DNA of 64,000 nt from an uncultured Candidatus Saccharibacteria bacterium (GTDB lineage Bacteria > Patescibacteriota > Minisyncoccia > Sungbacterales > HO2-52-23): NCBI GenBank assembly GCA_964585475.1, contig CAZPDF010000006.1, positions 8,531 through 72,530 on the forward strand. The letters run 5' to 3'. This document shows, in pieces, positions 4,337-63,592 of this stretch. Position 1 is the stretch's first letter. Each line of letters opens with the position of its first letter. A program made the position numbers and the translations under genes. Under the pieces are notes generated by a model. That model was not told the origin of the DNA. It did not search any database and saw nothing but the letters and a program-made list of their open reading frames with translations.

Positions 4337-4390
4337 GAGAGAAGAATTATGCTATCGTAAGGCGGGCGGAAAAAGAAACAGTGTTTAGAT

Positions 4391-4547
4391 AAATCCTAAA
4401 TTCTAAGCACTAAATTCTAAACCGACCGATAGGTCGTCCTGAGCACAGCGAAGGAACTCACGAGTTCCTTCAGTCGCTTCGCTCCTTCAGGATGACTTGT
4501 TTGTGACAAGTCAGTTTAGAGTTTAGGATTTAGTATTTAGAGTTTCG
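4391..4547. repeat. Palindromic intergenic element, family A, copy 1
   Basis: Core 4434-4496 is a ~27-bp-arm palindrome (GTCGTCCTGAGCACAGCGAAGGAACTC ... GAGTTCCTTCAGTCGCTTCGCTCCTTCAGGATGAC). It is flanked by inverted AAATCCTAAATTCTAA / TTAGAGTTTAGGATTT motifs. Confidence 0.75.
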
Positions 4548-5306: not shown

Positions 5307-5720
5307 ATGAAACCTCTTGAGAAAATTTTGACCCATATCCGCTCCCTTCCGGAGAAGACGAGGCGCCTCCTCGCTGGCCTCTTTTTAATCGCGGCCGCAA
5401 TTCTTCTTTTTGTTTCATGGAGCATTACGATTCCCTCGCGGCTTACCTCTCTATCGGGGAATTCTTTCGTGAGAGACAATACAAATGTGGCGGCGCGGAT
5501 CGAGGGCGCCTCCGCTATCTCACCCGCCACCCCCTCGCCTGCGGAGGGCGTCATTGAATCTCTCGGCACAGTATTCAAAGCCATTGTCCCCGAAGTCAAT
5601 AGAGAAGAAGAATCGCGTACAGTTTTTTCTAGGATTGAAGAAACGGCAGGGTACGCATCAGCCATGATAATACAGGCGTTTGATACGCTATTAAATTACG
5701 CGGAGAGTCAACTGCAATAA
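5307..5720 (+). CDS. Hypothetical membrane-anchored protein (alternative upstream start at 5271)
   Basis: ORF with an N-terminal TM helix (LLAGLFLIAAAILLFVSW); no recognisable domain. Confidence 0.35.
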   Translation: MKPLEKILTHIRSLPEKTRRLLAGLFLIAAAILLFVSWSITIPSRLTSLSGNSFVRDNTNVAARIEGASAISPATPSPAEGVIESLGTVFKAIVPEVNREEESRTVFSRIEETAGYASAMIIQAFDTLLNYAESQLQ

Positions 5721-5779
5721 ATTCAAAATGCAAAATGATGGCTAGGCCTTTCAGGCCGCCATCCCGGCAGCAAAGCTGC

Positions 5780-5930
5780 TTAGGGACAATGCAAAATTTA
5801 AAATTGACACAGGGTGTCATCCTGAGCGAAGCGAAGGATCTCCGAGATCCTTCGGTCGCTTCGCTCCCTCAGGATGACGTCCTAAAGGACGTCAGTTTAG
5901 AATTTAGAGTTTAGGATTTAGAATTTTTAC
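5780..5930. repeat. Palindromic intergenic element, family A, copy 2
   Basis: Core 5816-5878: GTCATCCTGAGCGAAGCGAAGGATCTC-CGA-GATCCTTCGGTCGCTTCGCTCCCTCAGGATGAC. Its 5′ flank is near-identical to copy 5 (AATGCAAAATTTAAAATTGACACAGGGT), and TTTAGAATTTAGAGTTTAGGATTTAGAA follows. Confidence 0.8.
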
Positions 5931-36740: not shown

Positions 36741-36759
36741 TCCTTCTGACAACTACTCC

Positions 36760-39181: not shown

Positions 39182-39290
39182 CATGCGAATAGCGCGACCC
39201 TCGCCATCGGGTTCGGGGTATACGAATGCGCCCATGCGAATACGGTGATAAGTATCGCCAAGGTTTTACGCCTTGGTTTTTTGATCCACG

Positions 39291-39408
39291 CACCAGAAGA
39301 CCACGGGCTTGCCTGTGGAGGAATGGTGGTCTTCGGTGCGGGATTTCGCTCCACTGGCAAGCCTTCGGCTTGACCGTAAGCGAGGATACCACGGGCTTGC
39401 CCGTAGAG
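39291..39408 (+). repeat. Family B structured repeat (CCACGGGCTTGCCCGTGG hairpins), copy 1
   Basis: ~115 nt with >80% identity to the reverse complement of 46770-46895; contains the palindromes CCACGGGCTTGCC(T/C)GTGG and GGTCTTCGGTGC/…CAGAAGACC. Confidence 0.7.
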
Positions 39409-39624
39409 CTTTATTTTCAAGCGAGCGAGTGAAAAACAAAGATCTTTGCTTTTCCGAGCGAGCGCCGAAAACAAAGGGTTTAATACCGTGATCTTTAGTG
39501 CTTGCGGTAGAACAAATTTAAGTCGTCCCGGCCCTCCGTGCCCGGGTTCAGTACCCTTTATTTTCCGGCCCCAACATGCCATATTTGATTTACGCTCTTT
39601 AAATAAACAGATTGGAGGTGAATT

Positions 39625-41175
39625 ATGCGGTCCTTGGTGGATCTTGGGCGAATCCGCGGCATAGAAGTTGAGCATCAAGCCCTCGTTACCATAAACGGCA
39701 AGACGCAGCCGGAATTTTTCATGGCGCCGGAACGGCAAAATGTTTTCTTTGAGAAACTTCTTCCTCCGGAGCTTACGTCTTCTTGGCTGACCCCGATGGT
39801 AAATTGGCTGTTCCTTGCTAACGGCGCCAAAATAGGAATTGATAGCGGTTGGCATCCGGAATATGCAACGCAAGAGGTAGATTGCTCTCTGGTCGCGCTT
39901 TCATGCGAAAAAGCAGGCGAGAATATCATGGCGGGAATAGCCAAGCGAGCGAATGAATACTGGAAGGAATATGGGATAACGGTGCGTTTCTTCAAAAATA
40001 ATTTGGATGCGTCAGGCCATGCCGATCACTCCTGCGGCATGCATGAGAGCTACATGTTTTTACGCGATGAGGATAAGCTCCGCATGGCTTATGTAGTTGA
40101 GTTGCTCTGGCCGCATCTTGTTTCGCGCAGCTTCTATACCGGAAATGGCTGGGTGGATAAAGAACTTTCATTTCATATCTCGCAGCGCGCCAAGGCCATT
40201 GAAGCATTTTTAACCGGAGCTACAACAAGCAAGCGCCCAATAGTCAACACCCGCGATGAGCCGCATGCCGATGCCGAAAAGTACCGCCGGATACATATTA
40301 TAGTCGGCGATTCTCTTATGGCTGATACGGCAATTTATTTGAGATCCGGAACTACCGCCTTGATTCTGGATATGATCGAGGAGGGCTTCCTTACAGAATG
40401 CCCCTTCCGCTGCGAGAACGATGAGAGAAAAGTGAAAATTCTGCATGATTTTTCCCAGGACATTACCCTGCGCAAGCCGGTCAAGTTTGATAGCGGTAAC
40501 TACACGATGGTTGATGTTCAGGAATGGTATTTTGAGCGGGCACAGGAATACTGCGAGAAAACCGGGCGCATGTCGGGAGAGCGAGAAGACGTACTTCGCC
40601 GTTGGGGAGATAGGATAACGTATGCGCGAAGCGACGATCCGGTCGGCGTTCTCTCTTCGTGTGTGGATTGGGCCGCCAAGAAGTGCCTCATCGAAGAAGA
40701 CATGAAGCGGTATGGCTACGGGTTTAATACCCCGCCGGATTCCGAAATTACGGTTTTGAAGAGGGATCCCAAAACCGGGAAGAGAAAAGAGGTACGCTCT
40801 CGGGTGTTTGATCATCTGAAAGCGCTGGATCTTAAGTTTTTGGAGCTTGGAGCGCAGGGCTACATGCAGAAACTTATTGAAACCGGTTTTATAGAGCGCC
40901 TGGCAACCGACGAGATGATAAGAGCCGTTGAGTATGGGCCCGTGCCGGATCTTCGCTCTTGCGCCAGGGCCGATGCGTGGCAATGGTATGTGGCTGAAGC
41001 TCAAAGGCGCGGCCGGGTGCTGACCGAAGCCGCAGACTGGATGTATTTTGCGGCCAAAGACGGGGACGAGAGGATAGAAAGATTCGGGAAAATGAAAGAC
41101 CCCTATGAAAGCCGCCTTAAGTTATTGTCGGCGCCGGAGGACACGGATTCTCAAGGGCCAACGGAAGCGCCATAG
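39625..41175 (+). CDS. Pup-protein ligase PafA-like (Pup ligase/deamidase family)
   Basis: [10 protein letters not shown] and [27 protein letters not shown] are near-identical to mycobacterial PafA/Dop blocks. N-terminal GIEVEH. GGAGGTG RBS. Confidence 0.85.
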   Translation: [516 protein letters not shown]

Positions 41176-41240: not shown

Positions 41241-42845
41241 GTGAAATCTGATTTATCTTTATACCGCCTGCTTGAAATTTTTCCCGGGGCCATCGCCTGG
41301 GCAACGCTTTTCGGAATGGTAGTTGTCTCCTGGAGAGCACCGATTGCGGCAAGTTTTTTTATAATAGCATTCGATCTTTATTGGCTGCTGAAAACCATCT
41401 TTTTTACCTCGCATATCGTCGCCTCTTACCGGAAGATGCGGGAAAATTTAAAAATTGATTGGATGGGAAGACTGCGTGAAGTATCGGAGGATACTAATGG
41501 TAAAGTTCTCGACAAGCTCGAACAATACTCTTCGAGCGAGCCCTTCGACTCCGCTCAGGATAAACTTCGCGAGTCGAGAAGCTACAATTGGCAGGACCTT
41601 TATCATCTTATTATTCTTCCGGCGTATCAGGAGCCGTACGAGGTACTGCGGGCGTCTCTCCTGGCGATAAAAAACTCCAGCTGGCCGAAAGACCGGATGA
41701 TCGTGGTTTTGGGAATTGAAGAGCGCGGCGGAGAAGAGGATCAAATTGCGGCGGAAAAAATTAAACAGGAATTCGGATCCAATTTCGCGAAATTTCTAGT
41801 AACGGTGCACCCCGCCGGGCTTCCCGGAGAAATTCCGGGAAAAGGATCCAATGCAACCTGGGCTGCCAAAGCCGCGAAAAAAATTATTGATGATCTCCCG
41901 ATTCCGTATGAACGCGTAATCGTCTCCTCCCTGGATTCCGATACCAGGGTTTACCCGGATTATTTTGCCATTGTCGCGTATCACTACTTAACCGAGTCGG
42001 GTCCCCTTCAGGCCTCCTATCAACCCATTCCGGTTTATCACAATAATATCTGGGATGCTCCGGCAATATCGCGCGTGGTGTCCACGTCGGACACTTTCTG
42101 GCAAATGACCCAACAGTCGAGACCCGAGCGGCTCGAAACCTTCTCTTCGCATTCGATGCCGTTTAAATCATTGGTGGAGGTTGGATTTTGGCAGACCGAT
42201 ATAGTTTCTGAGGATTCTCGAATTTTCTGGCAATGCCTGCTGTATTATAACGGCGATTGGCGGGTGGTGCCGCTTTATTACCCGGTATCCATGGATGCCA
42301 ATCTTGCGCCGTCGTTTTGGCAGACTGCCAAAAATATTTATCGCCAGCACCGCCGTTGGGCTTGGGGAGTCGAAAATATACCCTACATGCTCTACGGCTT
42401 CTTCAAAAATAAATTTATTCCCTTAAGGAAAAAGCTTTTCTATGCATCTGATAAAATAGAGGGTTTCTGGTCGCTATCGACGAATGCCCTCCTTATTCTT
42501 TTTTTAGGATGGCTGCCGCCTCTTTTGGGGGGCGACGTATTCTCAACCACCGTCCTCGCGCATAATCTTCCGCGTATCACCCAGATTCTTCTGACGCTGG
42601 CGATGGTGGGACTTGCTTCGGCCGCAGTAATTTCTTTGGCCCTCCTCCCCACGAGGCCCAAGAAAAAACCTTATCACTGGAAGTGGTGGCTGGTGCTTGA
42701 GTGGCTTACGATCGTCGTAACCGGGACAATTTTTGGCGCAATCCCCGGACTTGAGGCGCAAACCCGTCTCATGCTAGGAAAAAAACTTGGATTTTGGAGA
42801 ACGCCCAAAGTGAGAAAATCCGAAATCCCAATCTCTAAATTCTAA
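41241..42845 (+). CDS. Membrane-bound family-2-like glycosyltransferase
   Basis: N- and C-terminal TM helices around a cytoplasmic domain with DSD (DxD) and a QxxRW-like region (QHRRWAWG), as in processive GT2 synthases. Confidence 0.5.
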   Translation: MKSDLSLYRLLEIFPGAIAWATLFGMVVVSWRAPIAASFFIIAFDLYWLLKTIFFTSHIVASYRKMRENLKIDWMGRLREVSEDTNGKVLDKLEQYSSSEPFDSAQDKLRESRSYNWQDLYHLIILPAYQEPYEVLRASLLAIKNSSWPKDRMIVVLGIEERGGEEDQIAAEKIKQEFGSNFAKFLVTVHPAGLPGEIPGKGSNATWAAKAAKKIIDDLPIPYERVIVSSLDSDTRVYPDYFAIVAYHYLTESGPLQASYQPIPVYHNNIWDAPAISRVVSTSDTFWQMTQQSRPERLETFSSHSMPFKSLVEVGFWQTDIVSEDSRIFWQCLLYYNGDWRVVPLYYPVSMDANLAPSFWQTAKNIYRQHRRWAWGVENIPYMLYGFFKNKFIPLRKKLFYASDKIEGFWSLSTNALLILFLGWLPPLLGGDVFSTTVLAHNLPRITQILLTLAMVGLASAAVISLALLPTRPKKKPYHWKWWLVLEWLTIVVTGTIFGAIPGLEAQTRLMLGKKLGFWRTPKVRKSEIPISKF

Positions 42846-43040
42846 ATATCTCCACTAATCAAAATTCAAAATGACAGTGCAAAATCTAAAATTGATACGG
42901 GGTGTCATCCTGAGCGAAGCGAAGCCCTGTAGAATCACCCATGGGGAGCTCTACGGGGCGAAGGATCTCAGAGATCCCTCAGCCGCCTCGCTCCTTCAGG
43001 ATGACGGTAGAACCGTCAATCTTGCATTTTGAATTTTATT
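42840..43040. repeat. Palindromic intergenic element, family A, copy 5 (long-loop variant)
   Basis: Core 42903-43005: GTCATCCTGAGCGAAGCGAAGCC...GGCGAAGGATCTCAGAGATCCCTCAGCCGCCTCGCTCCTTCAGGATGAC; 5′ flank near-identical to copy 2. Confidence 0.8.
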
Positions 43041-52030: not shown

Positions 52031-52084
52031 TTGTGTGGATAACTTAACTTGTATACATTCTATTTATTTTCTATAATAGTATAT

Positions 52085-53950
52085 ATGCTCACAAAAAAGC
52101 AAACACAAGTCCTAGATTTCATAAAGGCTTATATGGCAAAGCATAGCTATGCCCCCTCCCTCGATGAGATCAAGAAGAAGTTTAAGCTCGCCTCTGTATC
52201 TACTGCTCATTACTACATAAGCAAATTACAAGATGCTGGTTTTTTGAATAAAGAACACAATCAACCTCGTGCTGTTTCGACCGTTAAAGCAAAACAGACT
52301 GTTGAAGTTCCCATTTTAGGAGCAATCGCGGCAGGTGAGCCTATTGAGGCGATAGAAATTCCTGACGAAACAATAACGATCACAAGAGATGAAATTGGAA
52401 AGCAGGGCAAGCACTATGCTTTGCGTGTGCAAGGTAGCAGTATGATTGATGAGGGTATTTTTGATGGCGATATTGTCGTTATACGCAAACAAGAAGTAGC
52501 AGAAAATGGTCAAACTGTTGTGGCGGTCATTGATGATAACGAGGCGACACTCAAAAAACTGTATCGTGAAAATGGAAAGTTTAGACTTCAACCGGCAAAT
52601 CCAACACTATCTCCAATTTATCGTGATGAAGTGGAAGTGAGAGGTGTAGTTGTAAAGATTATTCGAAACCTCGAATCACAACTGGATCAAGGACAATCAA
52701 GGGATGAGAAGTATGTCCGTAAAATAGATTATTCATGGGACTACAGAGGAGAAAAAACAAAGTCGTATACGCACGGAATACATACCTATCCGGCGATGTT
52801 CATTCCACAAGTCGGACGAAGATTGTTAGAAACTTATAGTAAAGAGGGCGATACAATTTGTGATATTTTCTGTGGCTCTGGTTCAGCCTTAGTCGAAAGT
52901 AGGTTGATAGGGAGAAATGCTTACGGCATTGATCTCAATCCTTTGGCCATTTTTCTTGCGAAAGCAAAAACAACTCCAATCAATCCACAAAAACTAACCA
53001 AAGAATACATTATCCTGCTCAGCAGAGTAGAAAAAATAAAGGACAATGAGATAAAAAGACCTGATTTTAAGAATATTGATTTTTGGTTTAAGGACAAGGT
53101 AATAGTTAAACTTGCGAAACTAAAGAAAGCTATACAAGAAATAAAAGACGAGACCATTCAGAATTTCTTGATGGTTGCTTTTAGTGAGACAGTTCGGTAT
53201 TCCTCAAATACAAAGACTGGAGAGTTTAAGTTGGTGCGTGTTAAAGGAGAAAAACTGGAAAAGCATGATCCTGATATCTTGGGCATATTTCGAAAAAATG
53301 CAGAGAAAAATATCGCAGGTATGACGGATTTTTATAAAGATGCAAAAAATGATTCATGGACAAAAATAATCTATGGTGATTCATCAAAAGATAACGGAAT
53401 AAAAGCAAATTCTATTGATTGCATCATCACCTCACCGCCATATGGCGATAGTCGCACTACAGTAGCTTACGGACAGTTTTCTAGACTCTCGGCGCAGTGG
53501 ATTGATGTGTTTGAAGATCCAAATGACGCCTCTGGGGTAGATAACGATCTTCTCGGGGGTAGAGCTACTAAAAATTTAACCCATACACTTTCATCAGCTT
53601 ATCTTAAGGAATCATTAGACAAAATTGTGAAGCAAGACGAAGCAAGAGCAAAAGATGTATTAAGTTTTAATCTTGGATTGAATGAATGTCTGAAACAAGC
53701 TCACAGAATACTTAAACCAAGAAAGTATTTTTGTCTTGTTGTCGGAAATAGATTAGTCAAACAAGTACGAATTCCCACCGACTTTATTATTGCTGAATTA
53801 GCAGAAAAGATAGGTTTTACTTGTGAAGATATAGCCGTTCGAAATATCCCCGGCAAAAGAATGCCAATCAAAAATTCTCCAACGAATATTGTGGGTGCTT
53901 TAGAGGAAACAATGAACAAGGAAAGTATTGTTGTGCTAAGAAAGAATTAG
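52085..53950 (+). CDS. LexA-like repressor (wHTH plus S24 peptidase) fused to an N4-cytosine/N6-adenine DNA methyltransferase (the ORF extends upstream to 52049)
   Basis: N-terminal MLTKKQTQVLDFIKAYMAKHSYAPSLDEIKKKF (LexA DNA-binding domain) and VQGSSMIDEGIFDGDIVVIRKQ...TVVAVIDDNEATLKKL (S24 Ser/Lys dyad). C-terminal MTase motif I DIFCGSGS and motif IV IITSPPYGD. Confidence 0.7.
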   Translation: MLTKKQTQVLDFIKAYMAKHSYAPSLDEIKKKFKLASVSTAHYYISKLQDAGFLNKEHNQPRAVSTVKAKQTVEVPILGAIAAGEPIEAIEIPDETITITRDEIGKQGKHYALRVQGSSMIDEGIFDGDIVVIRKQEVAENGQTVVAVIDDNEATLKKLYRENGKFRLQPANPTLSPIYRDEVEVRGVVVKIIRNLESQLDQGQSRDEKYVRKIDYSWDYRGEKTKSYTHGIHTYPAMFIPQVGRRLLETYSKEGDTICDIFCGSGSALVESRLIGRNAYGIDLNPLAIFLAKAKTTPINPQKLTKEYIILLSRVEKIKDNEIKRPDFKNIDFWFKDKVIVKLAKLKKAIQEIKDETIQNFLMVAFSETVRYSSNTKTGEFKLVRVKGEKLEKHDPDILGIFRKNAEKNIAGMTDFYKDAKNDSWTKIIYGDSSKDNGIKANSIDCIITSPPYGDSRTTVAYGQFSRLSAQWIDVFEDPNDASGVDNDLLGGRATKNLTHTLSSAYLKESLDKIVKQDEARAKDVLSFNLGLNECLKQAHRILKPRKYFCLVVGNRLVKQVRIPTDFIIAELAEKIGFTCEDIAVRNIPGKRMPIKNSPTNIVGALEETMNKESIVVLRKN

Positions 53951-54699
53951 AGAATCTTTTTCTGAATCTTAAACAAAAGTGGTAAAGATTTCTCAGTTAA
54001 GCGGAATGCTGAGCCATGATCATGTGGTTTCCCCGCATTTTTACCACTATGGTATACGCCTAAGCGAATGTCATATTTTGAGTGAGCAAGAAACTTAGTC
54101 GGATCAATTTCTTTCAGAATATAAGCATCTTTGTAATGAAAATACTCATACCCCCGAATCTTTTTTGTTTCAGCACGAACCAATATCAACCCATCTCCTA
54201 TTTTTTCGATAGCTTTTTTCCTCAAAAACGCCAGACTGTAATATCCTAAAAGTTTGCCTTTTTTGAGAATCAGTAATTTCCCTTGTTTTTCATCAATAGT
54301 AGCCTGAAATCCCATACCGTTTCTTTTACCATCACTGATGGTCTGATGGAGAATTTTAATCTTAGGAAATTCAGGATCGGAATAACCAAAGCGTTTTCTT
54401 ATTTCAGCATTTGTAATACCCTCTGGACTCTTGGTGAATAGAGTCATCATTGAAAGAGTATTGAGTCTTTGCGATTTCAATTCCATTACTCCAAAATCTG
54501 GCAGAGCGATATTGTTTTCCGTAATACCAAGATAATCCTCTAGGGTTTTACCTATCCCAGTATTATGACTCCGGTTAGATTTAATCCATCCCTTTTTGGA
54601 GAGTTCTTGAAGTGCTTTCCTAATTTGGGTTAATGTTCGTTTTTGCATATTACTTTTGTCCAAGAAACCCCTATTTTGTTTAGGTTCGAACTTGGACAT
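53947..54699 (-). CDS. Putative type II restriction endonuclease (MvaI/BcnI-like, inferred), partner of the adjacent methyltransferase
   Basis: Overlaps the MTase stop by 4 nt in convergent orientation; TGIGKTLEDYLGI...LPDFGVMELKSQ segment resembles the MvaI/BcnI family as I recall it. Confidence 0.35.
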   Translation of the reverse strand: MSKFEPKQNRGFLDKSNMQKRTLTQIRKALQELSKKGWIKSNRSHNTGIGKTLEDYLGITENNIALPDFGVMELKSQRLNTLSMMTLFTKSPEGITNAEIRKRFGYSDPEFPKIKILHQTISDGKRNGMGFQATIDEKQGKLLILKKGKLLGYYSLAFLRKKAIEKIGDGLILVRAETKKIRGYEYFHYKDAYILKEIDPTKFLAHSKYDIRLGVYHSGKNAGKPHDHGSAFRLTEKSLPLLFKIQKKIL

Positions 54700-55159: not shown

Positions 55160-55470
55160 TACATTTAGCCCACTCAGCCACGCCTCCACGTATTTAATTC
55201 TCGGCGGTGCCTCGATCAAAAAACTGTACGGCTGAGTGTCCGCCGGGGCGGTCTTTTGACCGCCCGTTCAAAGCTGCGCTTGCTCGCTTTGAACCCACTC
55301 AGCCACGCCTCCGCTATAGACCCAATGCAATGTGCGCCCGTCAAAAACAAAATTGTTTGCTTTTGACCCGCTAAGCCACCTCTCCGTTTTGTGTCCAATG
55401 CAAGGTGCAGCCGTTTAACGTGCCTTTAGGCACGTTAAACCCACTCAGCCACACCTTCTCCTGCGCAATA
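55160..55470 (-). repeat. Four degenerate copies of the tRNA-Ser 5′ ~20 nt (GGAGGCGTGGCTGAGTGGG), each followed by a different perfect palindromic hairpin
   Basis: Plus-strand CCCACTCAGCCACGCCTCC-like motif at 55168, 55293, 55367 and 55441. Adjacent palindromes: GCTAAATGTAACGTTAGTTACATTTAGC, TTCAAAGCTGCGCTTGCTCGCTTTGAA, TCAAAAACAAAATTGTTTGCTTTTGA, TTAACGTGCCTTTAGGCACGTTAA. Confidence 0.6.
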
Positions 55471-55519
55471 TTAACATAATTATCGTGTTTACTCAAGGGA
55501 ATGTGGTATAATAAATTCA

Positions 55520-56764
55520 ATGGCTATATTTACTTATTCGGCGGCGGAACGTAGCGGCGCGGTGCAAAAAGGAGAAAAAGAGGCCGAAAATGAGAAAGCT
55601 TTGGCACAGGCCCTTAAGACAGAGGGGCTGTTTCTTTTGGAAGCCAAAGAGCTGGGGAAACAAGGGGGATTTTCGCTTCTGCATGCCAATATTAAGTTGG
55701 GTGAGATTCTCTCGCGCATCCGGCCAATCGGCTTGGTGGACAAGATGTTTTTTGCGAGAAACCTCGGCGTGATGCTTGGCGCGGGCCTTTCCCTTACGCG
55801 GGCCATTGATGCGCTGGTGCAGGAGTCATCCAACGCAAAATTTAAAAAGATTTTGGACGAGGTGAATAGCTCGGTCGTCAAAGGCAACACTTTCGCCGAC
55901 TCCCTGCGGATCCACGAGGATGTTTTCGGGTCACTTTTTGTGAATATGATTGAGGTGGGGGAGACGACCGGAAAACTTACCATGGTTTTGAATTTGCTTG
56001 CGAACCAAATGAAGAAGGATCATAACCTCCGGCGCAAAGTGAAAGGAGCCATGATTTATCCGGCCATAATCATTATGGCATTGGTCGGCATCGGATCCGG
56101 AATGTTGATTTTTGTCGTTCCGACACTTGCCGCCACCATTAAAGAACTTGGGGTGGAGCTTCCCCTTACTACGCGGATCATTATTGCCTTAAGCGACATT
56201 TTGGTAAATTACGCCGTTTGGGTGTTTATCGGGCTTCTGGTTTTTGTTTTGCTTTTTTGGAGGGCGTTGAAAAGCGCGCGGGGTAAATCTATATTCGACC
56301 GCCTGGTTTTGCATTTCCCAATTTTTGGAGAGTTGGTACGCAAATTCAACGTGGCGCGGTTTTGTAGAACTCTTGCTTATCTAATAACTTCTGGCGTCCC
56401 GATTGTGCGGTCTTTGGAGATTACCGCATCGGTTCTGGGCAATACGCTATTTCGCAATGCGGCGCGCGAGGCCGCGGTGGAGATTCAGAAAGGAAAACAG
56501 CTTCATGAAATTTTGCAGGGGCATGTCTCGCTCTTTTTGCCGATTGTGATCCAGATGATCAGCGTGGGGGAGGAGACCGGAAAGATTTCAAGCATGATGC
56601 TGCGCCTGGCCATATTTTTTGAAGAGGACGTGACGAATGCCACCAAAAATCTTTCGACCATCATTGAGCCCTTGCTCATGCTTATTATCGGCGCAGGGGT
56701 TGGCTTTTTCGCAGTCTCCATGTTGCAACCAATTTACGGCAGTTTGGGGAATATAGGAGGATAA
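55520..56764 (+). CDS. pilC: Type IV pilus assembly protein PilC / type II secretion system F-domain protein
   Basis: Two GspF repeats (…FARNLGVMLGAGLSLTRAIDAL… and …FCRTLAYLITSGVPIVRSLEIT…) and three TM segments. Confidence 0.85.
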   Translation: MAIFTYSAAERSGAVQKGEKEAENEKALAQALKTEGLFLLEAKELGKQGGFSLLHANIKLGEILSRIRPIGLVDKMFFARNLGVMLGAGLSLTRAIDALVQESSNAKFKKILDEVNSSVVKGNTFADSLRIHEDVFGSLFVNMIEVGETTGKLTMVLNLLANQMKKDHNLRRKVKGAMIYPAIIIMALVGIGSGMLIFVVPTLAATIKELGVELPLTTRIIIALSDILVNYAVWVFIGLLVFVLLFWRALKSARGKSIFDRLVLHFPIFGELVRKFNVARFCRTLAYLITSGVPIVRSLEITASVLGNTLFRNAAREAAVEIQKGKQLHEILQGHVSLFLPIVIQMISVGEETGKISSMMLRLAIFFEEDVTNATKNLSTIIEPLLMLIIGAGVGFFAVSMLQPIYGSLGNIGG

Positions 56765-56809
56765 ACGATAAATTCGAAATCCTAATCTCTAAATTCTAGA
56801 CAAATCTTA

Positions 56810-57742
56810 ATGTTCCAAATCCAAAATTCCAAACACGCGTTTAGAATTTCGAATTTCGAATTTAGAATTTTCCCCAAAGGGGGTTTTACTCTTCTTGAAG
56901 TTCTAATTGTTTTAGGAATTTTGGGGTTAGTTGGCGGCATTGCGATTACTTCCTTTTTTGGTTCAAGAAATATTCGGGAGCTTGCAACATCCGGCGAGAA
57001 CGTGCTCTCGGTCCTGCGTCTGGCGCAGGCCAAGGCCCTCGGTAGCGAGGATGGTTCCCAGTGGGGGGTGTGGCTTGGGCAATCTCGGGTGATTCTTTTT
57101 CGAGGGCCCAGCTTTGCCGGATCAACTTCAACTCAGATTTTTGATCTGCCATCCAATCTGGAGATTGTAAATATCAATCTGGCCGGAGGCGGACAGGAGG
57201 TTTTGTTTAAGCGTCTTGATGGAGGTACTGATAACCCCGGAACATTCGATGCCAGGGTGCGAAGCGCCACGAATTTCATTTTTCCAATCGTGGTGGATGG
57301 TTCCGGAAAAGTATACCAATCTGCTACGGCCCCCTCGCCCACCGGAACCAGGATCATAGATGCCCGCCACCGCCAGTTTAACCTCGGCTGGAGCATTCAA
57401 AATTCGATTCAGCTGGTATTGGTATTTTCTAATCCCCCCGGTCCTAATTCCACGACCACCGTCACCATGGCGTCCTATTTTGATGTAGGGAAAACAAAAT
57501 TCGATTGGACGGACACTGTTGTGGTGGGCGGGCAGAATCAAACTCTGCGGATTCACACCACCCTGCTTAATTCCGTAAACACTACACTCTCCGTTGACCG
57601 GGATTGTCGGAAAAATACTAAAAAAGTAGACATAAGCATTGATTCCGGCGTCATTAACGACCTTCGGAATATTGCAACGTACGAGGCCGATTGCCAGACC
57701 ATTGCGGTAGGGGCTTTTGGGGGAACGATGAGTGAACCATAG
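56810..57742 (+). CDS. Type IV pilin-like protein (pseudopilin) with a long leader
   Basis: Prepilin motif ...PKGG|FTLLEVLIVLGILGLVGGIAI; the leader contains the heptamer repeat (N)GAATTT ×4. Confidence 0.75.
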   Translation: MFQIQNSKHAFRISNFEFRIFPKGGFTLLEVLIVLGILGLVGGIAITSFFGSRNIRELATSGENVLSVLRLAQAKALGSEDGSQWGVWLGQSRVILFRGPSFAGSTSTQIFDLPSNLEIVNINLAGGGQEVLFKRLDGGTDNPGTFDARVRSATNFIFPIVVDGSGKVYQSATAPSPTGTRIIDARHRQFNLGWSIQNSIQLVLVFSNPPGPNSTTTVTMASYFDVGKTKFDWTDTVVVGGQNQTLRIHTTLLNSVNTTLSVDRDCRKNTKKVDISIDSGVINDLRNIATYEADCQTIAVGAFGGTMSEP

Positions 57743-57785
57743 AAAAAATCCTAAATCCTAATTTCTAAATTCTAAACAATAACTA

Positions 57786-58880
57786 ATGCTTAAAAATCTA
57801 AATCCCAAAACTCGTTTTGAATTTTGGAACATTCGAATTTTGAATTTGTTTCGAATTTCGAATTTCGAATTTCGAATTTCCCCCAATGGGGGGTTTGGTC
57901 TGGTTGAGATGGTGATTGTTACCGCGATTGTTTCGGGGTCCTTGTTTGCATTTTTACAGGCCGAGATTTTGTCTGTGCGGCTTTTGAGAAGCGAAAAAGA
58001 GAATTTGGAGGCAACGCTTCTGGCCGAGGAGGCGCTCGAAGCAGTGCGCTCGGTCCGCGATGAATCTTGGACGACCATCTCCGCCTCCACCACGAACGGC
58101 ACTATCTACTACCCCTCGGTTGAGAACGGAAAATGGAAACTTTCAACTTCCTCTCCGGGGATTATAAATGGCAAATACAAGCGATTCGTCATATTTAGTG
58201 AAGTTCTTCGTGATACGCAGGATCGAATAGCTGCGAGCGGCACCGCTGATCCCGATACGAGAAAAGTTACGGCGTACGCCACCACTACGACCAAGCAAAT
58301 AACGCTTGTTACCTATATTACCAATTTTCAGAGTTATCTTCCCCGGCCGACCGAGGCCAAAGTAATTTCTTTTGAGGGTGCGACGACAGATGCGAATCTT
58401 GCCAGTTTTCCGTCGAATAACTTGGGCGACGGAGACCCGGCGCAGGGATTTACCACCCTTGTCGACTCCCTCCAAGTTACGAAAGTTGAGCTCTATCTTC
58501 GCAGGACCACTGTCTCTCCGTCAGACGTTTACGCCGAACTTAGAACCACGGCGACCGGGACGGTCCTGGGCATCTCCAATATCATTACGGCCAGTACCAT
58601 CTCAAGTACGAGTCCGGCTTGGATTGAATTTAGGTTTCCCGACCCCGTAAATTTGAGCGCCCTTACCAAATATTATATTCGTCTCCGTAGTATTCCCGAT
58701 TCAACCGCTGTTGGCAGCGGTTCGGCCGGAAACATAAACTGGTTTTATCTGCAAACCGGCTCAAGCCCTTATGCCGGAGGAGAGGCCAGGCGTTATGTCG
58801 GACGGCTGTCTAACCCCACAGATGCGGGACAGCAACTGGATCAGTATGACTTTGGGTTTAGAGTGTACGCACTGCAATAA
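57786..58880 (+). CDS. Type IV pilin-like protein (pseudopilin)
   Basis: ...SPNGG|FGLVEMVIVTAIVSGSLFAF; the leader contains TCGAATT ×4 plus degenerate copies. Confidence 0.7.
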   Translation: MLKNLNPKTRFEFWNIRILNLFRISNFEFRISPNGGFGLVEMVIVTAIVSGSLFAFLQAEILSVRLLRSEKENLEATLLAEEALEAVRSVRDESWTTISASTTNGTIYYPSVENGKWKLSTSSPGIINGKYKRFVIFSEVLRDTQDRIAASGTADPDTRKVTAYATTTTKQITLVTYITNFQSYLPRPTEAKVISFEGATTDANLASFPSNNLGDGDPAQGFTTLVDSLQVTKVELYLRRTTVSPSDVYAELRTTATGTVLGISNIITASTISSTSPAWIEFRFPDPVNLSALTKYYIRLRSIPDSTAVGSGSAGNINWFYLQTGSSPYAGGEARRYVGRLSNPTDAGQQLDQYDFGFRVYALQ

Positions 58881-58881
58881 C

Positions 58882-59520
58882 ATGAAATCACAAATCACAA
58901 ATCACAAATCACAAACAAATTCTAAACGCGTTTGGAATTTAGAATTTTGGTCGTTGGGATTTGTTTGGAATTTGGTGCTTGGGGCTTGGAATTTTCCTTC
59001 GCGCGGTCGCGCGAAGGGCATCTCCCTTATCGAGGCCGTGGTCTATATTGCGCTTCTCGGGATTTTCGCGGTTTTCATTTCTAATTTCCTGCTGCAGATT
59101 GTAAATACCTACTATCGCGCCCGGGCCGAGCGGGAAGTATTGTCGAATGCGCGGCTTCTGCTTGAAACGGTGACTAAATTCGTTGCGCAGTCAAGCGAAG
59201 TATATGCGCCGACAAGCAGCTTTAACACGAATCTCGGCCAGCTCTCGCTTATTACGACAGCCACATCCACCCCGGAGCACACTACCTCGTATAGGGATTT
59301 CTGGGTTGATAACGGGGTTTTCTTTTTGCGGCGTGAGGGCGGATCCTCCATGGCCCTCTCGGCGCCTTCGGTGCGCGTGACCAAATTCCGGCTGGAGAGA
59401 ATCGTGCAGGGACTTGCCCGCGAGGCGGTAAAGGTTACCCTGGAAGTCGCATCCGCGCAGTCCAAATTCCCGACCTCCGCCACCCTTAATTCAACCACGG
59501 CTTTGAGAGGCAACTACTAA
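58882..59520 (+). CDS. Type IV pilin-like protein (FimT/PilW-like minor pilin); the ORF extends upstream to 58771 but the ATG at 58882 follows the previous stop
   Basis: ...GRAKG|ISLIEAVVYIALLGIFAV; the leader coding begins with AAATCAC ×4. Confidence 0.65.
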   Translation: MKSQITNHKSQTNSKRVWNLEFWSLGFVWNLVLGAWNFPSRGRAKGISLIEAVVYIALLGIFAVFISNFLLQIVNTYYRARAEREVLSNARLLLETVTKFVAQSSEVYAPTSSFNTNLGQLSLITTATSTPEHTTSYRDFWVDNGVFFLRREGGSSMALSAPSVRVTKFRLERIVQGLAREAVKVTLEVASAQSKFPTSATLNSTTALRGNY

Positions 59521-59535
59521 AATTTACAATTTTCA

Positions 59536-60978
59536 ATGACCAATTTTCAATCTAGACGGAATTTAAAACGAGTGCCGCGTTGGAATGTTTGGGAATTGGG
59601 AATTGGGAATTGGGAATTCCGTTCGCGCTTCAGCGCGAACGGGTATGCTGCCCTGACGACGATAATCCTCGCAGTTATTGTCTCCTTGGTGGTTGTCGGC
59701 GGCTTTACATTTTTTGCTCTGCAGGAAGTCGGCATAAACCGGATATTTACGAAATCCATTGACGCGCTATATATAGCGGAAAGCGGTATCGAGGATATGG
59801 TATGGCGTGTTATGTCCGGAAAACAGACCGGAAGTCCGGAAACGCTCGGGGTAGGAAAAGGCACCACCACCATCAATGTCACCGTAACTCCGGATAACAA
59901 GCGGATTATCCGTTCCGATGGGCAGAGAGATGGCGTTAGGCGCAGTCTTGAGACGAGGATTGATCTTTCCATAACTAATGCGAGTTTCATCTATGGAGCG
60001 CAGGTGGGCGGCGGTGGACTTGAAATGGAGAATAACGCAACCCTAAACGGAAGCGTATTTTCCAACGGTACGATCATTGGGGATAACGGAGCCGTTATTA
60101 CCGGCGATGCGTTTGCGGCATCCAACTCACAAATTAGCTTTATGGCGGTGGATGGTAACGCGCAGGCCTTTATTATCGCGACAAGCTCCATCGGGGGGTA
60201 CGCGACGTCCACTAATCTTTTCCATAATTCGAGCTCCGGAAAAGACGTTCATGCCGACAAAATCATAAATAGCGCGGTGACTGCGGACGCTTATTATTAT
60301 GATGTAATAATTAACAGCACCGTTCTTGGATCAAGTTTTCCCGGGAATCCCGGCCCGCCAACACTTTCTCCAATTCCTCTACCCATATCCGATGCCACTA
60401 TCAACCAATGGAAACAAGAGGCAGAACAACTTGGGACGATTGCGTCTGGCGGCTGCGGACAGGACTGGACCCCTCCCACAAGTCCTTACACCTTGAACGG
60501 CGGAGTTTTAGATCGCAATCTTGTTCTTACCAATAACCAAATTCTTATTATGCGGGGGACAATATGGGTGAAATGCAATGTAGATATTTCAAATGGTGCA
60601 ACCATACGGCTTGATTCCGCATACGGTGATACTAGCGGTGCGCTGGTTGCCGACGGCTGGATGCACCTGCAAAATAACGGCCAGTTTCAAGGATCCGGCG
60701 TTGCCGGAAGTTATCTCATGCTTTTGACAACGGCGTCCGGAGGCGGGCATCACGGCTCGGCCATTGACTTGCACAATAATGCGGGAGGAGCAATATTTTA
60801 CGCCCAAAACGGAATGATTTTTCTGCACCAAAACGTTTCGGTAACTGAACTTATTGGCTACCGTCTGCATATGGAAAATAACTCCGTTCTTACTTACGAG
60901 ATCGGTTTGCAGAATGTGCGATTCTCGGCTGGCCCGGCCGGAGGATATGATCTTAAATACTGGAAGGAAGTGGAATAG
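59536..60978 (+). CDS. PilX-like pilus-associated protein, paralog A
   Basis: N-terminal GYAALTTIILAVIVSLVVVGG hydrophobic segment typical of PilX_N; the leader contains GGGAATT ×4. Confidence 0.6.
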   Translation: MTNFQSRRNLKRVPRWNVWELGIGNWEFRSRFSANGYAALTTIILAVIVSLVVVGGFTFFALQEVGINRIFTKSIDALYIAESGIEDMVWRVMSGKQTGSPETLGVGKGTTTINVTVTPDNKRIIRSDGQRDGVRRSLETRIDLSITNASFIYGAQVGGGGLEMENNATLNGSVFSNGTIIGDNGAVITGDAFAASNSQISFMAVDGNAQAFIIATSSIGGYATSTNLFHNSSSGKDVHADKIINSAVTADAYYYDVIINSTVLGSSFPGNPGPPTLSPIPLPISDATINQWKQEAEQLGTIASGGCGQDWTPPTSPYTLNGGVLDRNLVLTNNQILIMRGTIWVKCNVDISNGATIRLDSAYGDTSGALVADGWMHLQNNGQFQGSGVAGSYLMLLTTASGGGHHGSAIDLHNNAGGAIFYAQNGMIFLHQNVSVTELIGYRLHMENNSVLTYEIGLQNVRFSAGPAGGYDLKYWKEVE

Positions 60979-60990
60979 TAAATAAACAAA

Positions 60991-62454
60991 ATGCAAAGTC
61001 AAAAGTCAAAAGTCAAAAGTCAAAACCTAAAAATTATCCCGCCAAAAGCAGGATACCGAAACTTTGGACTCGAGGGGGGCTACGCGGCCTTGACCGTTAC
61101 CTTGCTTACCCTCGTTGTTTCGCTTACCATCGTGGGGGGACTTACCTTGTTTACCATCCGAGAAGTTAACATAAACCGCGCTTTTACGAAATCCATTGAT
61201 TCCTATTTTATCTCAGAAGGCGGAATAGAGGATGCGCTATATCGGGTGCTTGCAGGAAAACAGCTTACTAATGGCGAAACCTTAGGGGTAGGGAAGGGAA
61301 CCACGACTTTGCTGGTTACTGTTTTTGGAAGTGAAACTACCATTCGTTCTGAAGGAAGGAGGGATACTATCCAAAGGAATCTTGAAACAAAGGCGGCCAA
61401 AGAAACGGTGGGAACCAGTTTTATTTACGGAGTCCAAGTGGGAGATGGAGGGGTGGAAATGAGTAATACCGCCGCTATAAATGGCAGCTTCTATTCTAAT
61501 GGTCCTCTTGTCGGTCAAAACTCGCCTACTATCACCGGGGATGTATTTGCGGCAAGTACTTCGGCGGTTACCGGTACATTTACAATAAATGGAAACGTGC
61601 GTGCTCACCGGATACAAGGGGAGCAGAATGATCAAATTGAAATTGCCGGATTTGCCTCTTCCAGCACGTTGATTGACGATGCGGTAGTTGGGGGGAGCGC
61701 TTCTGCGGATATGTTTGATGACAGCGCGATTAGCCAAAATGCATATTATCAGACCTCAATATCCGCGGATACCACGGTGCTGGGCAGTACAATTCAGATT
61801 TCAAACACTAATTTTGATCTCCCCGTTCTGCCCATGCCCATAAGCGACGCACAGCTTGATCAATGGGAGCAGGAGGCGCAAGCGGGCGGTATTCACACCT
61901 CACCCTGTCCGTATGAGTTGACGTCCGGCACCACCAATCTGGGTCCCAGGAAAATCGCCTGCGATATGGATATCAAGAATACGGCAGTTGTGAATCTCAC
62001 GGGAACTCTCTGGGTTGCCGGTAATCTTACTATTCAGAATTCGGCAATTGTACGCTTAGACCCCGCTTACGGATCCGGCAGCGGGTTAATTATCGTAGAT
62101 GATCCTTCTAACCGTTCTACGGGAAGCATCCTGGATGTGAAGAATTCTATGCAAGTTCTCGGTTCGGGTACTGCAGGAAGTTATGTAATGCTGGTTTCCC
62201 GAAATAATTCGGCAGAAAGCGGAGGCAGCAACGATGCGATCGAGATAAACAATACATCTTCTGCCCCTATTTACTACGCACCCCACGGATCCATAGAGAT
62301 TCACAATTCCGCTACACTTAAAGAAGTGACGGCATACAAACTCGAGATTAGAAATTCTGCAACGGTTACCTATGAGACCGGTCTGGCTAATGTAAATTTT
62401 TCCTTGGGGCCGTCGGGAGGATATAACGTAAGATATTGGCGGGAAGTCGAATAG
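60991..62454 (+). CDS. PilX-like pilus-associated protein, paralog B (tandem duplicate of 59536-60978)
   Basis: GYAALTVTLLTLVVSLTIVGG; colinear similarity to paralog A (…AFTKSID…ETLGVGKGTTT…); the leader contains AAAGTCA ×4. Confidence 0.6.
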   Translation: MQSQKSKVKSQNLKIIPPKAGYRNFGLEGGYAALTVTLLTLVVSLTIVGGLTLFTIREVNINRAFTKSIDSYFISEGGIEDALYRVLAGKQLTNGETLGVGKGTTTLLVTVFGSETTIRSEGRRDTIQRNLETKAAKETVGTSFIYGVQVGDGGVEMSNTAAINGSFYSNGPLVGQNSPTITGDVFAASTSAVTGTFTINGNVRAHRIQGEQNDQIEIAGFASSSTLIDDAVVGGSASADMFDDSAISQNAYYQTSISADTTVLGSTIQISNTNFDLPVLPMPISDAQLDQWEQEAQAGGIHTSPCPYELTSGTTNLGPRKIACDMDIKNTAVVNLTGTLWVAGNLTIQNSAIVRLDPAYGSGSGLIIVDDPSNRSTGSILDVKNSMQVLGSGTAGSYVMLVSRNNSAESGGSNDAIEINNTSSAPIYYAPHGSIEIHNSATLKEVTAYKLEIRNSATVTYETGLANVNFSLGPSGGYNVRYWREVE

Positions 62455-62482
62455 GGGGAGAATTAGTAGTATAATGTAAGAC

Positions 62483-63592
62483 ATGGCGATGGTAACGGCT
62501 ATACGAAATCAAATTTTAAGGATCGCGGACCCATTTATTCGTATTCCCGTCTTGGGCCTCGATATTTCTGATCTCTCCATAAAATATCTGAAATTCGGAG
62601 GGGGACGGATGCTTACTCTTGACGATTTTGGAGAAGTTACGGTCGCCGAAGGCATTATTTCTAACGGGGAGATCAGGGATGAGGAAGCGCTCGTGACTAC
62701 GTTAAATTCGTGGCTGTTGAAAGACGGTCGGCGGTTTCGAGGGTCTTTTGTTGCCGTATCGCTTCCTGAAGAGAAAAGTTTTTTGCGTCTGATCCAGCTC
62801 CCCAAGATCAAGCGGGAAGAATTGGGAAATGCGATCCGATGGGAGATTGAGGCAAATATTCCCATGCCGGCGGATGAACTTAGTTACGACTATGAAGTTA
62901 TTGAGCCGCTGGAGGGTGGCGCTGACCATTTTGACGTTGTCTTAACCGCTTTCCCCAAAGCCATAGTTGAATCCTATGTGCGGGTTCTGAAAAAATCGGG
63001 CTTGGAGCCCTTGGCCCTTGAACTTGAATCACAGGCGATAATCCGCGCGGCCATTGCAGATCTAAAAGAGAGAACCGCTAAGCTAGTGGTGGACATGGGG
63101 CGTACGCGAACAAGTTTTATTATAATTTCTGGTGGCGCGATTATTTTTACCACCACGATTGAGCTTGGGGGCCGGTTGCTGGAAGAGCACATTGTAAGGG
63201 GTCTGGGTGTCGACTGGGGTAAGGCGGTGGTCCTCAAAAAGGAGGTAGGGTTTAATAAAAAAGAACTTGAAGGCAGAGTTTTTACGGCCCTGGTTCCTCC
63301 TGTGGCTGCATTCGGCGACGAATTACGCCGCAGCATCGAGTACTATCATAACCACACCAAGCACATTCACGGCGCAAGCGAATCCATCGAAGAAATTTTG
63401 CTCGTCGGAGGAGATGCCAACCTTAATGGTCTCGATACGTATCTTTCGAGCATGCTCAAGGTGCCGGTAAGACTTGCTAATCCCTTTGCTTCAATTCGCC
63501 ATCGCCTCGCTTATGCCATTCCGCCTATTGCCAAAAATAAAGCCCTCGCTTTTACCACTGCGCTCGGCCTGGCCATGCGCGGCTTAGAGTAG
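62483..63592 (+). CDS. pilM: Type IV pilus assembly protein PilM (actin-like ATPase fold)
   Basis: N-terminal ...VLGLDISDLSIKYLKF and the sugar-kinase/actin fold pattern typical of PilM. Confidence 0.7.
   Translation: MAMVTAIRNQILRIADPFIRIPVLGLDISDLSIKYLKFGGGRMLTLDDFGEVTVAEGIISNGEIRDEEALVTTLNSWLLKDGRRFRGSFVAVSLPEEKSFLRLIQLPKIKREELGNAIRWEIEANIPMPADELSYDYEVIEPLEGGADHFDVVLTAFPKAIVESYVRVLKKSGLEPLALELESQAIIRAAIADLKERTAKLVVDMGRTRTSFIIISGGAIIFTTTIELGGRLLEEHIVRGLGVDWGKAVVLKKEVGFNKKELEGRVFTALVPPVAAFGDELRRSIEYYHNHTKHIHGASESIEEILLVGGDANLNGLDTYLSSMLKVPVRLANPFASIRHRLAYAIPPIAKNKALAFTTALGLAMRGLE

Follow-up and report, generated by a model that had tools for sequence, protein, structure and literature searches.

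The stretch of DNA considered here, a window of 64 kb, derives from a genome close to Candidatus Sungbacteria (Sungiibacteriota) of the candidate phyla radiation: the closest relatives of its pilC are metagenome-assembled genomes of that group, and the homologues of its second pilin-like protein bear the same name. The window holds a type IV pilus cluster composed of pilC, five pilin-like genes and pilM, an order that is kept in 36 related loci, and each of the five pilin-like genes carries a tandem array of heptanucleotides in the region that encodes its leader. The identity of these arrays, their distribution and their probable translation are the subject of this analysis. The genes of the cluster are the following.

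55520..56764, + strand: pilC, first gene of the cluster, T2SSF platform protein (Pfam T2SSF, 3.6e-53); TATAAT 7 nt 5' of the ATG
56810..57742, + strand: gene 1, GspH/FimT-like minor pilin (N_methyl, 7.5e-6, residues 24-45); leader MFQIQNSKHAFRISNFEFRIFPKGG, then FTLLE; sole canonical start ATG 56810
57786..58880, + strand: gene 2, pilin-like protein; leader MLKNLNPKTRFEFWNIRILNLFRISNFEFRISPNGG, cleavage motif G/FGLVE
58882..59520, + strand: gene 3, minor pilin (N_methyl, 9e-4, residues 43-66, below cutoff); leader MKSQITNHKSQTNSKRVWNLEFWSLGFVWNLVLGAWNFPSRGRAKG, then ISLIE
59536..60978, + strand: gene 4, PilX-type N-terminus, paralogue of gene 5; leader MTNFQSRRNLKRVPRWNVWELGIGNWEFRSRFSANG, then YAALTT; no Pfam or NCBIfam match
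60991..62454, + strand: gene 5, paralogue of gene 4; leader MQSQKSKVKSQNLKIIPPKAGYRNFGLEGG, then YAALTV; sole canonical start ATG 60991
62483..63592, + strand: pilM (PilM_2, 2.1e-46); TATAAT 7 nt 5' of the ATG

With pilC on their upstream side and pilM on their downstream side, the pilin-like genes stand in a pilus-assembly context. They had been called pilin-like in a first-pass annotation made from the letters alone. Against the N_methyl model, gene 1 scores 25.8 bits (cutoff 21.2), gene 3 scores 19.1 bits, below that cutoff, and genes 2, 4 and 5 have no match. Genes 1-3 display the class III signature, with glycine at -1, a hydrophobic residue at +1, glutamate at +5 and a helix (G/FTLLE, G/FGLVE and G/ISLIE, the slash marking the cleavage site), and genes 4 and 5, with G/YAALT ahead of a hydrophobic helix but no Glu5, are PilX-like and match no family. 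Counted from the ATGs, the leaders of genes 1-5 comprise 25, 36, 46, 36 and 30 residues and do not conform to the short basic leader, typically of 5-30 residues. In two related loci (L003, 5102-8113; L005, 6722-9745), the homologue of genes 4 and 5 is a single protein of ~1000 residues, as opposed to the two shorter paralogues of the window genome, and it holds an inserted array of DGFARISYYD..DLKFARCTNADCT repeats.

All five heptamer arrays are recovered by Tandem Repeats Finder, with 4.3-4.4 copies each, where the first-pass annotation had placed them. Each array is an arm of an AT-rich palindromic cassette, and each arm has a fixed length of ~32 nt, made up of four 7-nt units and a tail of 3-4 nt.

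56840-56871, + strand: array 1, TTTAGAA/TTTCGAA/TTTCGAA/TTTAGAA then TTTT, 91% matches; outer 3' arm of cassette 1
57849-57880 (arm 57847..57880), + strand: array 2, TTTCGAA x4.4 (four copies plus TTTC); outer 3' arm of cassette 2
58885-58915 (arm to 58917), + strand: array 3, AAATCAC x4.4 (four copies plus AAAC), 100% matches; 5' arm of cassette 3, directly after the ATG
59589-59618, + strand: array 4, GGGAATT x4.3, 100% matches; 3' arm of cassette 4
60995-61025 (arm to 61027), + strand: array 5, AAAGTCA x4.4 (four copies plus AAAAC), 100% matches; A-rich 5' arm of a family-2 cassette

Much of the earlier description stands. The arrays are perfect or nearly so (100% pure for arrays 3-5), they cover codons 2-32 of the five open reading frames (ORFs), within the first ~35 codons, their frames are open and they precede the prepilin-type hydrophobic segment, and the peptides read from them (ISNFEFRIF, KSQITNHKSQT, WELGIGNWEF, QSQKSKVKSQN) are correct. 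Five different units do occur in five adjacent genes, and the degenerate copies reported upstream of array 2, seen as a 7.4-copy array at 57832-57880, are accounted for by the inner 3' arm of its cassette (57814-57846). The statement that every gene of the operon has an array is true of the five pilin-like genes and fails for pilC and pilM, both of which are array-free. In a lag-k scan of the 64 kb for periods 4-12, with a threshold of at least 19 self-matches out of 21, only period 7 gave arrays, five in number and all between pilC and pilM, and first-order Markov randomisations of the window, which keep its dinucleotide frequencies, yielded 0.0 arrays at every period. The five arrays are real and non-random. 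Degenerate period-7 arrays of the complementary type, overlooked at first, lie just 5' of three of them (56769-56798, 57746-57776, 59521-59551), and others are found far from the operon, upstream of a hydrolase gene and gyrA (4390-4421, 4513-4545, 5896-5926). Array 4, as (GGGAATT)x4 at 59589-59618, also matches the G3N4 G-quadruplex consensus.

Arrays 1, 2 and 4 are the 3' arms of inverted repeats of 30-34 nt that are 73-79% complementary and whose 5' arms follow the stop codon of the preceding gene, and cassettes 3 and 5 lack a good partner arm. The remaining parts of the cassettes are listed below.

56770..56801, + strand: cassette 1, outer 5' arm, AAATTCG AAATCCT AATCTCT AAATTCT AGAC; non-coding, stops in 3/3 frames; inverted repeat I2, 32 nt, 78% complementary to 56839-56870
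56870..56883, + strand: cassette 1, GC clamp, mini-hairpin TTCCCCAAAGGGGG, whose G run encodes the two glycines ahead of the cleavage site
57746..57777, + strand: cassette 2, outer 5' arm, AAATCCT AAATCCT AATTTCT AAATTCT AAAC; non-coding, no open frame; forms inverted repeat I1 (34 nt) with 57846-57879, 79% complementary
57878..57893, + strand: cassette 2, GC clamp TTCCCCCAATGGGGGG, encoding SPNGG
58961..59018, + strand: cassette 3, 3' arm GTTTGGAATTTGGTGCTTGGGGCTTGGAATTTT, with TAG changed to TGG, then GC clamp CCTTCGCGCGGTCGCGCGAAGG
59521..59557, + strand: cassette 4, 5' arm, AATTTAC AATTTTC AATGACC AATTTTC AATCTAGAC; part of inverted repeat I3 (30 nt; 73% Watson-Crick, with G.U pairs in addition)
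59619..59642, + strand: cassette 4, GC clamp CCGTTCGCGCTTCAGCGCGAACGG, also present in gene 4 of L021 and pilin 2 of L050
61036..61054, + strand: family-2 cassette of gene 5, apical GC hairpin ATCCCGCCAAAAGCAGGAT, then ACCGAAAC, encoding IPPKAGYRN

The 5' arm of cassette 4 contains both the ATG at 59536 and a promoter-like TTGAGA-16-TACAAT site. Two families can be told apart. Family 1 has, in order, an outer 5' arm (AAATYCN)x4 ending in AAAC, an ATG-bearing segment AAAT..CAAATGAC-AAAAT (AAAT-CC-AATGAC-AAAAT), an inner hairpin, an outer 3' arm GTTT(A/C)GAATTT... with four units, and a short GC clamp with a terminal G run; its copies lie at genes 1 and 2 of the window, pilin 3 in L041 and in L020, pilin 1 in L024, and gene 4 in both L003 and L005. 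In family 2, an ATG and an A-rich arm are followed by an apical GC hairpin (...PKAGYRNF...) and then by a T-rich arm; copies are found at gene 5 of the window, without the 3' arm, and in L032, L023, L013, L017, L021 and L028, one of them being non-coding and lying between pilM and pilN. Array 5 has no partner 3' arm but does have homologous arms in L006 and L023, and the apical hairpin of gene 5 is conserved in L032, L023 and several pilin-2 orthologues.

The comparison set consists of 36 related operons, 5 from genomes and 31 from metagenomes (pilin loci with L-numbers, such as L003, L049 and L050), with pilin-2 identities of 54-70% and a total length of 229.6 kb. The closest pilin-2 relative is 69% identical, and no variant of at least 90% identity was found in the sequence collections searched. 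Exact-protein look-ups with the products of pilC and genes 2-5 matched only the source contig, a second, identical long contig that may derive from the same reads as the source assembly, and one Logan contig, and the protein clusters of the locus are singletons in 7 of 7 cases. That Logan contig, from SRR8863434, corresponds to 55225-57861 of the window and ends within array 2, for which low coverage or array heterogeneity could be the cause; the Logan assembly of this run holds intact pilC, gene 1 and pilM and no intact genes 2-5.

The element is not restricted to the pilin genes. Non-coding copies lie elsewhere in the window at three sites.

4390..4545, + strand: 32-33-nt heptamer-periodic arms (TAAATCC.../...TTTAGAG) around GC-rich palindromes, ending 5 nt before the ATG of a metallo-hydrolase gene
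5719..5927, + strand: copy upstream of gyrA, with 3' arm GTTTAGAATTTAGAGTTTAGGATTTAGAATTTT and TAG in every unit
42815..42900, + strand: copy of the 5'-arm type, then the palindrome GTCATCCTGAGCGAAGCGAAG

Profile searches with nhmmer located copies at genes 1-4 and at 4392, 5895, 13821-13878 and 42801-42874 in the window, and in L003, L005, L020, L024, L040 and L041 among its relatives. The lag scan of the related operons gave 20 arrays, all of period 7 within the tested range of 4-12 and with many different units; the length is 28-35 nt in 19 of them. Over the window and the 36 operons together (about 290 kb), perfect period-7 runs show a bimodal length distribution: beside a background of 14-21 nt there is a second mode of 26-32 nt, and 32 nt is never exceeded. 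Family-1 copies at non-orthologous pilin genes align with a mean column identity of 69% and without gaps in their arms. The cassette of window pilin 3 is 83% identical to that of pilin 2 in L050, and the cassette of window pilin 2 is 82% identical to that of pilin 2 in L049, in both cases with equal unit number and differences by substitution only; the arm of L050 that is homologous to array 3 reads AAACCAC AAACCAC CAACCAC CAATCAC AAAC and has the same length. At the pilC-pilin 1 junction of L049, the element is wholly non-coding and is followed by ATG-CAA-AAA-GGA/TTC, in contrast to gene 1 of the window, where the clamp abuts GGT/TTT and no ATG lies downstream. The pilin-1 junctions of L005, L007 and L049 can be compared with that of the window genome for presence or absence of the cassette.

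Such polymorphism extends to pilin 2, whose 120 orthologues are annotated as type II secretion or pseudopilin proteins of Candidatus Sungbacteria and whose leaders span 2-67 residues, with differing cassette types. Most orthologues have leaders of 2-16 residues, for example MKG/F or MQKG/F; leaders of at least 20 residues occur in 31 of the 102 with a recognisable GF motif, and an A-rich arm followed by a T-rich arm is seen in about 20 of the 120. When a profile of the family-1 leader peptide was run against a database of 5.8 billion protein clusters, the only matches were ORFs of 31-74 residues, which are spurious translations of the same element; in their contigs it lies between uvrB and rmuC, or trx and trxB, and ends a few nucleotides before the downstream start. 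One of these matches is named for the Olavius Delta-1 symbiont. The element is a dispersed repeat and not a pilin-specific one.

Two further observations concern its composition. A GC-rich palindrome (GTCATCCTGAGCGAAGCGAAGGA...TCCTTCG...CAGGATGAC) is nested between AT-rich arms at 4440-4500, 5815-5885 and 42905-42930 of the window and at 2520-2600 of L007, and lies in frame within the pilin-2 leader (MKKKNNPKCHPERREGSQDPSVVSLLQDDG...) in L007 and L031. In P0001, a protein of 71 residues from a JGI contig of another genome, the 3' arm and GC clamp (FRISIFGFRISPPGV) are repeated three times in tandem, and the element can therefore multiply locally.

In the pilin-like genes, the position of start and stop codons bears on whether the arms are translated. 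The canonical starts of genes 1, 2 and 5 all lie upstream of the array, gene 4 has candidate ATG and GTG starts upstream and a TTG inside, and gene 3 alone has canonical starts downstream (in-frame alternatives TTG 58954, TTG 58972 and GTG 58975). Independent gene calls on the source contig give the ATGs listed above. Frame 0 is free of stops across all five leaders, the other frames having 0-2 stops, and 5' of the mature N-terminus the frame is open for 33-94 codons in 5 of 5 genes. Of six coding arms, five are stop-free in every frame; of six non-coding arms of the same genome, five are closed in 3 of 3 frames, with TAG or TAA in every unit. Stops have been lost from the coding arms by changes of TAG to TCG or TGG and of TAA to CAA, and in array 1 TCG stands exactly at the unit position where TAG would fall in frame. 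Since the stops have gone from the coding arms, translation most likely runs through them. We infer that the internal ATG of the element took over as start codon and that the leader is a translated palindrome, which would explain the odd leader peptides. Their composition follows the parts of the cassette: the A-rich arm gives K, N, Q, S and T, the T-rich arm F, L, I, W and S, and the G run of the clamp Gly-Gly before the cleavage site.

How translation might begin in these cistrons can be approached from the surrounding motifs. Shine-Dalgarno motifs precede 4 of 36 long ORFs, as compared with a background of 14%. The promoter-like site of gene 4 (TTGAGA-16-TACAAT, 59503-59536) ends 5 nt before its ATG, and pilC and pilM have their TATAAT boxes within 55490-55522 and 62465-62485. 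The proximity of such boxes to the ATGs, together with Shine-Dalgarno use at background level, suggests leaderless or Shine-Dalgarno-independent initiation in this organism, and the low-GC, A-rich start region of the cassette could plausibly serve as a Shine-Dalgarno-independent initiation region for internal cistrons. A split Shine-Dalgarno site bridged by a hairpin, as in gene 38 of phage T4, was dropped as a candidate, given that the genome does not use Shine-Dalgarno motifs above background.

It is probable, in our judgement, that the arrays are the arms of a portable, translated leader cassette and not a high-frequency slippage switch. A dispersed repeat that elsewhere is normally intergenic, just 5' of a start codon, would repeatedly have become the 5' end of Sungbacteria minor-pilin genes. 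Translation would start at the element's own ATG, the ribosome would read on through one arm or both and then through the GC clamp, whose G run would encode the glycine that precedes the prepilin cleavage site. In genes 1-3, the N-terminal extension would be removed by the prepilin peptidase, and in genes 4 and 5 it would form a cytoplasmic tail ahead of the membrane helix. Being cleaved off or left as a tail, the extension would be tolerated provided that its frame is open, and the stop-bearing units TTTAGAA and CTAAATT would for this reason have been replaced by TTTCGAA, TTGGGAA, AAATCAC and AAAGTCA. A function beyond tolerance is uncertain.

Several observations weigh against a cassette that is simply tolerated and translated. 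For type IVa-like pilins, 25-46 residues is a long leader, and translation from the non-canonical in-frame ATT located 3'-terminally in arrays 1 and 2 would yield short, typical leaders, MFPKGG/F and MSPNGG/F. The enrichment in pilin genes (5 of 5 here) exceeds what simple tolerance would lead one to expect and may point to a further function. Arrays 2-5 are perfectly pure as against imperfect homologues in relatives, which implies a process of unit-to-unit conversion; since the units appear to have been homogenised without change of length, this is the main reason to keep rare slippage in view. Transposases, target-site duplications and recent identical copies were not noticed in the window, in which no systematic search for transposases, RAYTs or duplications was made. 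Lastly, cognate arms pair at 23.1 and non-cognate arms at 23.4 of 32 positions, and 14796 of 20000 permutations reach the observed value. As cognate arms are no more complementary than non-cognate ones, a selected RNA stem is not demonstrated.

This last result bears equally on the proposal that the cassettes are selected cis-regulatory RNA hairpins, in which a long stem would sequester the start codon and tune translation or stability cistron by cistron, so that the minor pilins are kept low and balanced or made temperature-responsive. Such a role is unlikely. The fold z-scores of the five start regions relative to shuffles are -1.6, -0.9, -2.8 (weak), -6.0 and +1.8 for genes 1-5 (+1.76 for gene 5). 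The gene-4 region, which has G.U pairs specific to the sense strand and in whose sense-strand fold array 4 pairs over its full length with the 5' arm, and the gene-3 region speak for hairpins, but those of genes 1, 2 and 5 do not fold better than shuffles, with 194 of 200 folding better than that of gene 5. Array 5 is unpaired, as is most of array 3 in the minimum-free-energy fold. The sense strand is favoured over the antisense in only two of the five regions, and sense-strand-specific structure was rejected as a general property on the grounds that the antisense folds better for genes 1, 2 and 5. In the comparative data, an AATG/CATT inner-stem pairing is present in 5 of 7 family-1 copies (window pilin 2, L041, L024, L043 and L044), arm positions 5 and 26 alternate between T-A and G-C, and RNAalifold reports 12 pairs changed on both sides, a consensus that is confounded because the units are self-complementary and GAATTC-like. 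Arm covariation, tried as a separate candidate, gave no signal in the cognate versus non-cognate comparison. In addition, the TAG-to-TCG changes in the coding arms break pairs without compensation, and neither covariation nor Rfam, which has no family in the region at E <= 1, marks a structured cis-regulatory RNA.

That the arrays might instead belong to untranslated leaders, with translation starting at weak or non-canonical codons by the GC clamp (ATT in genes 1, 2 and 5, TTG or GTG in genes 3 and 4), seems improbable. In that case they would serve as binding sites for S1, Csp or similar proteins or as promoter elements, much as was proposed for the TAACTGA repeats that immediately precede start codons in Beggiatoaceae. 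ATT starts would reduce the leaders of genes 1 and 2 to six residues, MFPKGG and MSPNGG, and TTG or GTG starts would leave 15-16 residues in genes 3 and 4; upstream of gyrA in the window and in other genomes alike, a few nucleotides separate the end of the element from the real start; Shine-Dalgarno motifs are not used; and heptamer repeats in 2-6 copies directly 5' of starts without a ribosome-binding site are known (MacGregor 2015, PMC4679880). The stops, however, have been purged precisely from the arms between the ATG and the mature N-terminus, which would be needless if these were untranslated, and the joint probability of the open frames of 33-94 codons in all five genes is <1e-5 by our own estimate from per-codon stop frequencies. 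Genes 1 and 5 have no canonical start 3' of the array. Binding by one sequence-specific protein is unlikely because the units differ between genes, and a single sequence-specific regulator of all arrays was rejected on that ground. The non-coding units TAGAAT and TAAATT do look like -10 boxes, and a promoter-like site spans array 1, but neither promoter-like sites (11 observed against 9.7 in shuffles) nor terminator-like sites (12 against 9.4) are enriched, and a role as intrinsic terminator or promoter was set aside accordingly.

The translated cassette has finally to be set against the proposal of the first-pass annotation, namely that gain or loss of 7-nt units by slipped-strand mispairing frameshifts each pilin gene independently and turns pilus-tip components reversibly on and off, in the manner of the Opa CTCTT repeats. 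We consider such contingency loci quite improbable, and an on/off switch is unsupported by the sequences. All five period-7 arrays do have a unit that is not a multiple of three and lie within the 5' coding region of surface-structure genes, for which the leader-region repeats of Opa provide a precedent (PMC3960869). Arrays 3-5 are 100% pure and arrays 1 and 2 nearly so, as opposed to degenerate non-coding copies; the units are homogenised relative to their homologues in L049 and L050, so that some process of misalignment acts; and the Logan contig from SRR8863434 ends inside array 2. Its end at 57861, however, does not fit the branch that gain or loss of one unit would create, by our own inference. 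The arrays have only about 4.4 units, with a ceiling of 32 nt and no array of at least 5 units among about 25, where contingency loci would show an open-ended tract length. Unit number is invariant among homologous arms in the window genome, L049, L050, L041, L020, L024 and L003, and these arms differ by substitutions and never by gain or loss of a unit, even among the non-coding 5' arms, where an indel would be frame-neutral and no selection on frame exists. All 14 arrays that border a mature N-terminus share the reading frame of an ATG further 5', and none is OFF, a result with a probability of about 0.003 if a third were OFF (own arithmetic), and equal arrays occur as non-coding arms and in unrelated intergenic regions.

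If the arrays are the arms of a translated cassette, the pilin leaders of 25-46 residues would be translated repeat DNA and no new type of signal. The many small 'hypothetical proteins' of metagenomes that contain ...ILNLFRISxFxFRI... are themselves this element, called as ORFs. For repeat biology, strict 7-nt periodicity combined with a fixed length of 32 nt and homogenised units goes beyond ordinary slippage. The class III leader seems to offer a permissive landing site and may be an exchangeable module at pilus-tip genes. A bolder view, which we hold to be improbable, is that the cassette is a portable pilin expression module (AT-rich initiation region, start, leader and Gly(-1) codon) that candidate-phyla-radiation bacteria exchange among pilin genes and genomes and that provides each minor pilin with an independent, low-frequency slippage switch or a hairpin throttle on translation. 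Pilus-tip composition, on which these episymbionts depend for attaching to hosts and taking up DNA, would then be under combinatorial control, and such switching or throttling would be among the few regulatory mechanisms identified in these uncultured bacteria.

Elsewhere in the window, a module of the Pup-proteasome type spans 34893-41175, where GC rises locally to 0.59; it encodes an AAA ATPase that carries proteasomal OB domains (34893-36740), and two members of the Pup-ligase family (36904-38988 and 39625-41175). An ORF at 52049-53950 fuses LexA, with its DNA-binding and S24 peptidase domains, to an N6/N4 DNA methylase and adjoins a gene for an MvaI/BcnI-type endonuclease (53947-54699).

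In a limited literature search, nothing was found on heptamer repeats in Parcubacteria, and the element itself, widespread as it is, was not found described, but its features can be set beside those of several known systems. The pilC gene of Neisseria has poly-G tracts in the region that encodes its signal peptide. As in these tracts and in the CTCTT repeats of Opa (PMC3960869), a unit that is not a multiple of three lies in the change-tolerant, leader-coding part of genes for surface proteins. Opa has long tracts that differ from locus to locus and from strain to strain, with a switching rate of about 1e-3 per generation (PMC3960869), unlike the present arrays, which are short, of invariant length, all in frame and derived from a palindromic element; neither variation of unit number among related genomes nor a mixture of ON and OFF frames is found here.

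Closer in appearance are the heptamer families, which include the TAACTGA repeats, intergenic direct repeats of Beggiatoaceae, Cyanobacteria and Bacteroidetes (PMC4679880), and the cyanobacterial STRR heptamers and the GGGAATC repeats of Xanthomonas, studied as putative quadruplex-forming sequences (PMC4692102). Translational regulation has been proposed as their role (PMC4679880, PMC4692102). They share with the present arrays tandem units of 7 nt in 2-6 copies, mostly directly 5' of starts without ribosome-binding sites, with occasional copies at ORF edges and some inverted pairs, and the unit of array 4, GGGAATT, is nearly that of Xanthomonas. These families, however, use one unit genome-wide, in 2-6 and up to 43 copies, whereas here the unit differs from arm to arm, ~4.4 units are fixed, and the arrays belong to a larger, conserved palindromic cassette.

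The element also recalls the REP/BIME, REPIN and MITE sequences (PMC3116915), which are short, non-autonomous hairpin palindromes, often mosaic, between co-directional genes; the mosaic likeness lies in the GC-rich palindromes nested in AT-rich arms at 4390-4545 and 5719-5927. Unlike in the REP class, the arms here are AT-rich and heptamer-periodic and not GC-rich, and no REP doublet organisation was identified.

A last likeness, one of organisation, is to the Rickettsia palindromic elements, which Ogata and colleagues reportedly described in 2000 as selfish palindromic repeats inserted in frame in protein-coding genes. These are dispersed palindromes of ~100-150 nt that occur both between genes and within ORFs, keep the frame open, add a dispensable translated segment and are polymorphic for presence or absence. 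The present element differs in its strict 7-nt periodicity and 32-nt arms, in its concentration in pilin-like genes and in its confinement there to the N-terminal leader, to which it supplies the start and the Gly(-1) codon. With dispersed palindromes in general it shares copies at unrelated sites within and between genomes, inverted arms (cassettes 1, 2 and 4) and presence/absence polymorphism.

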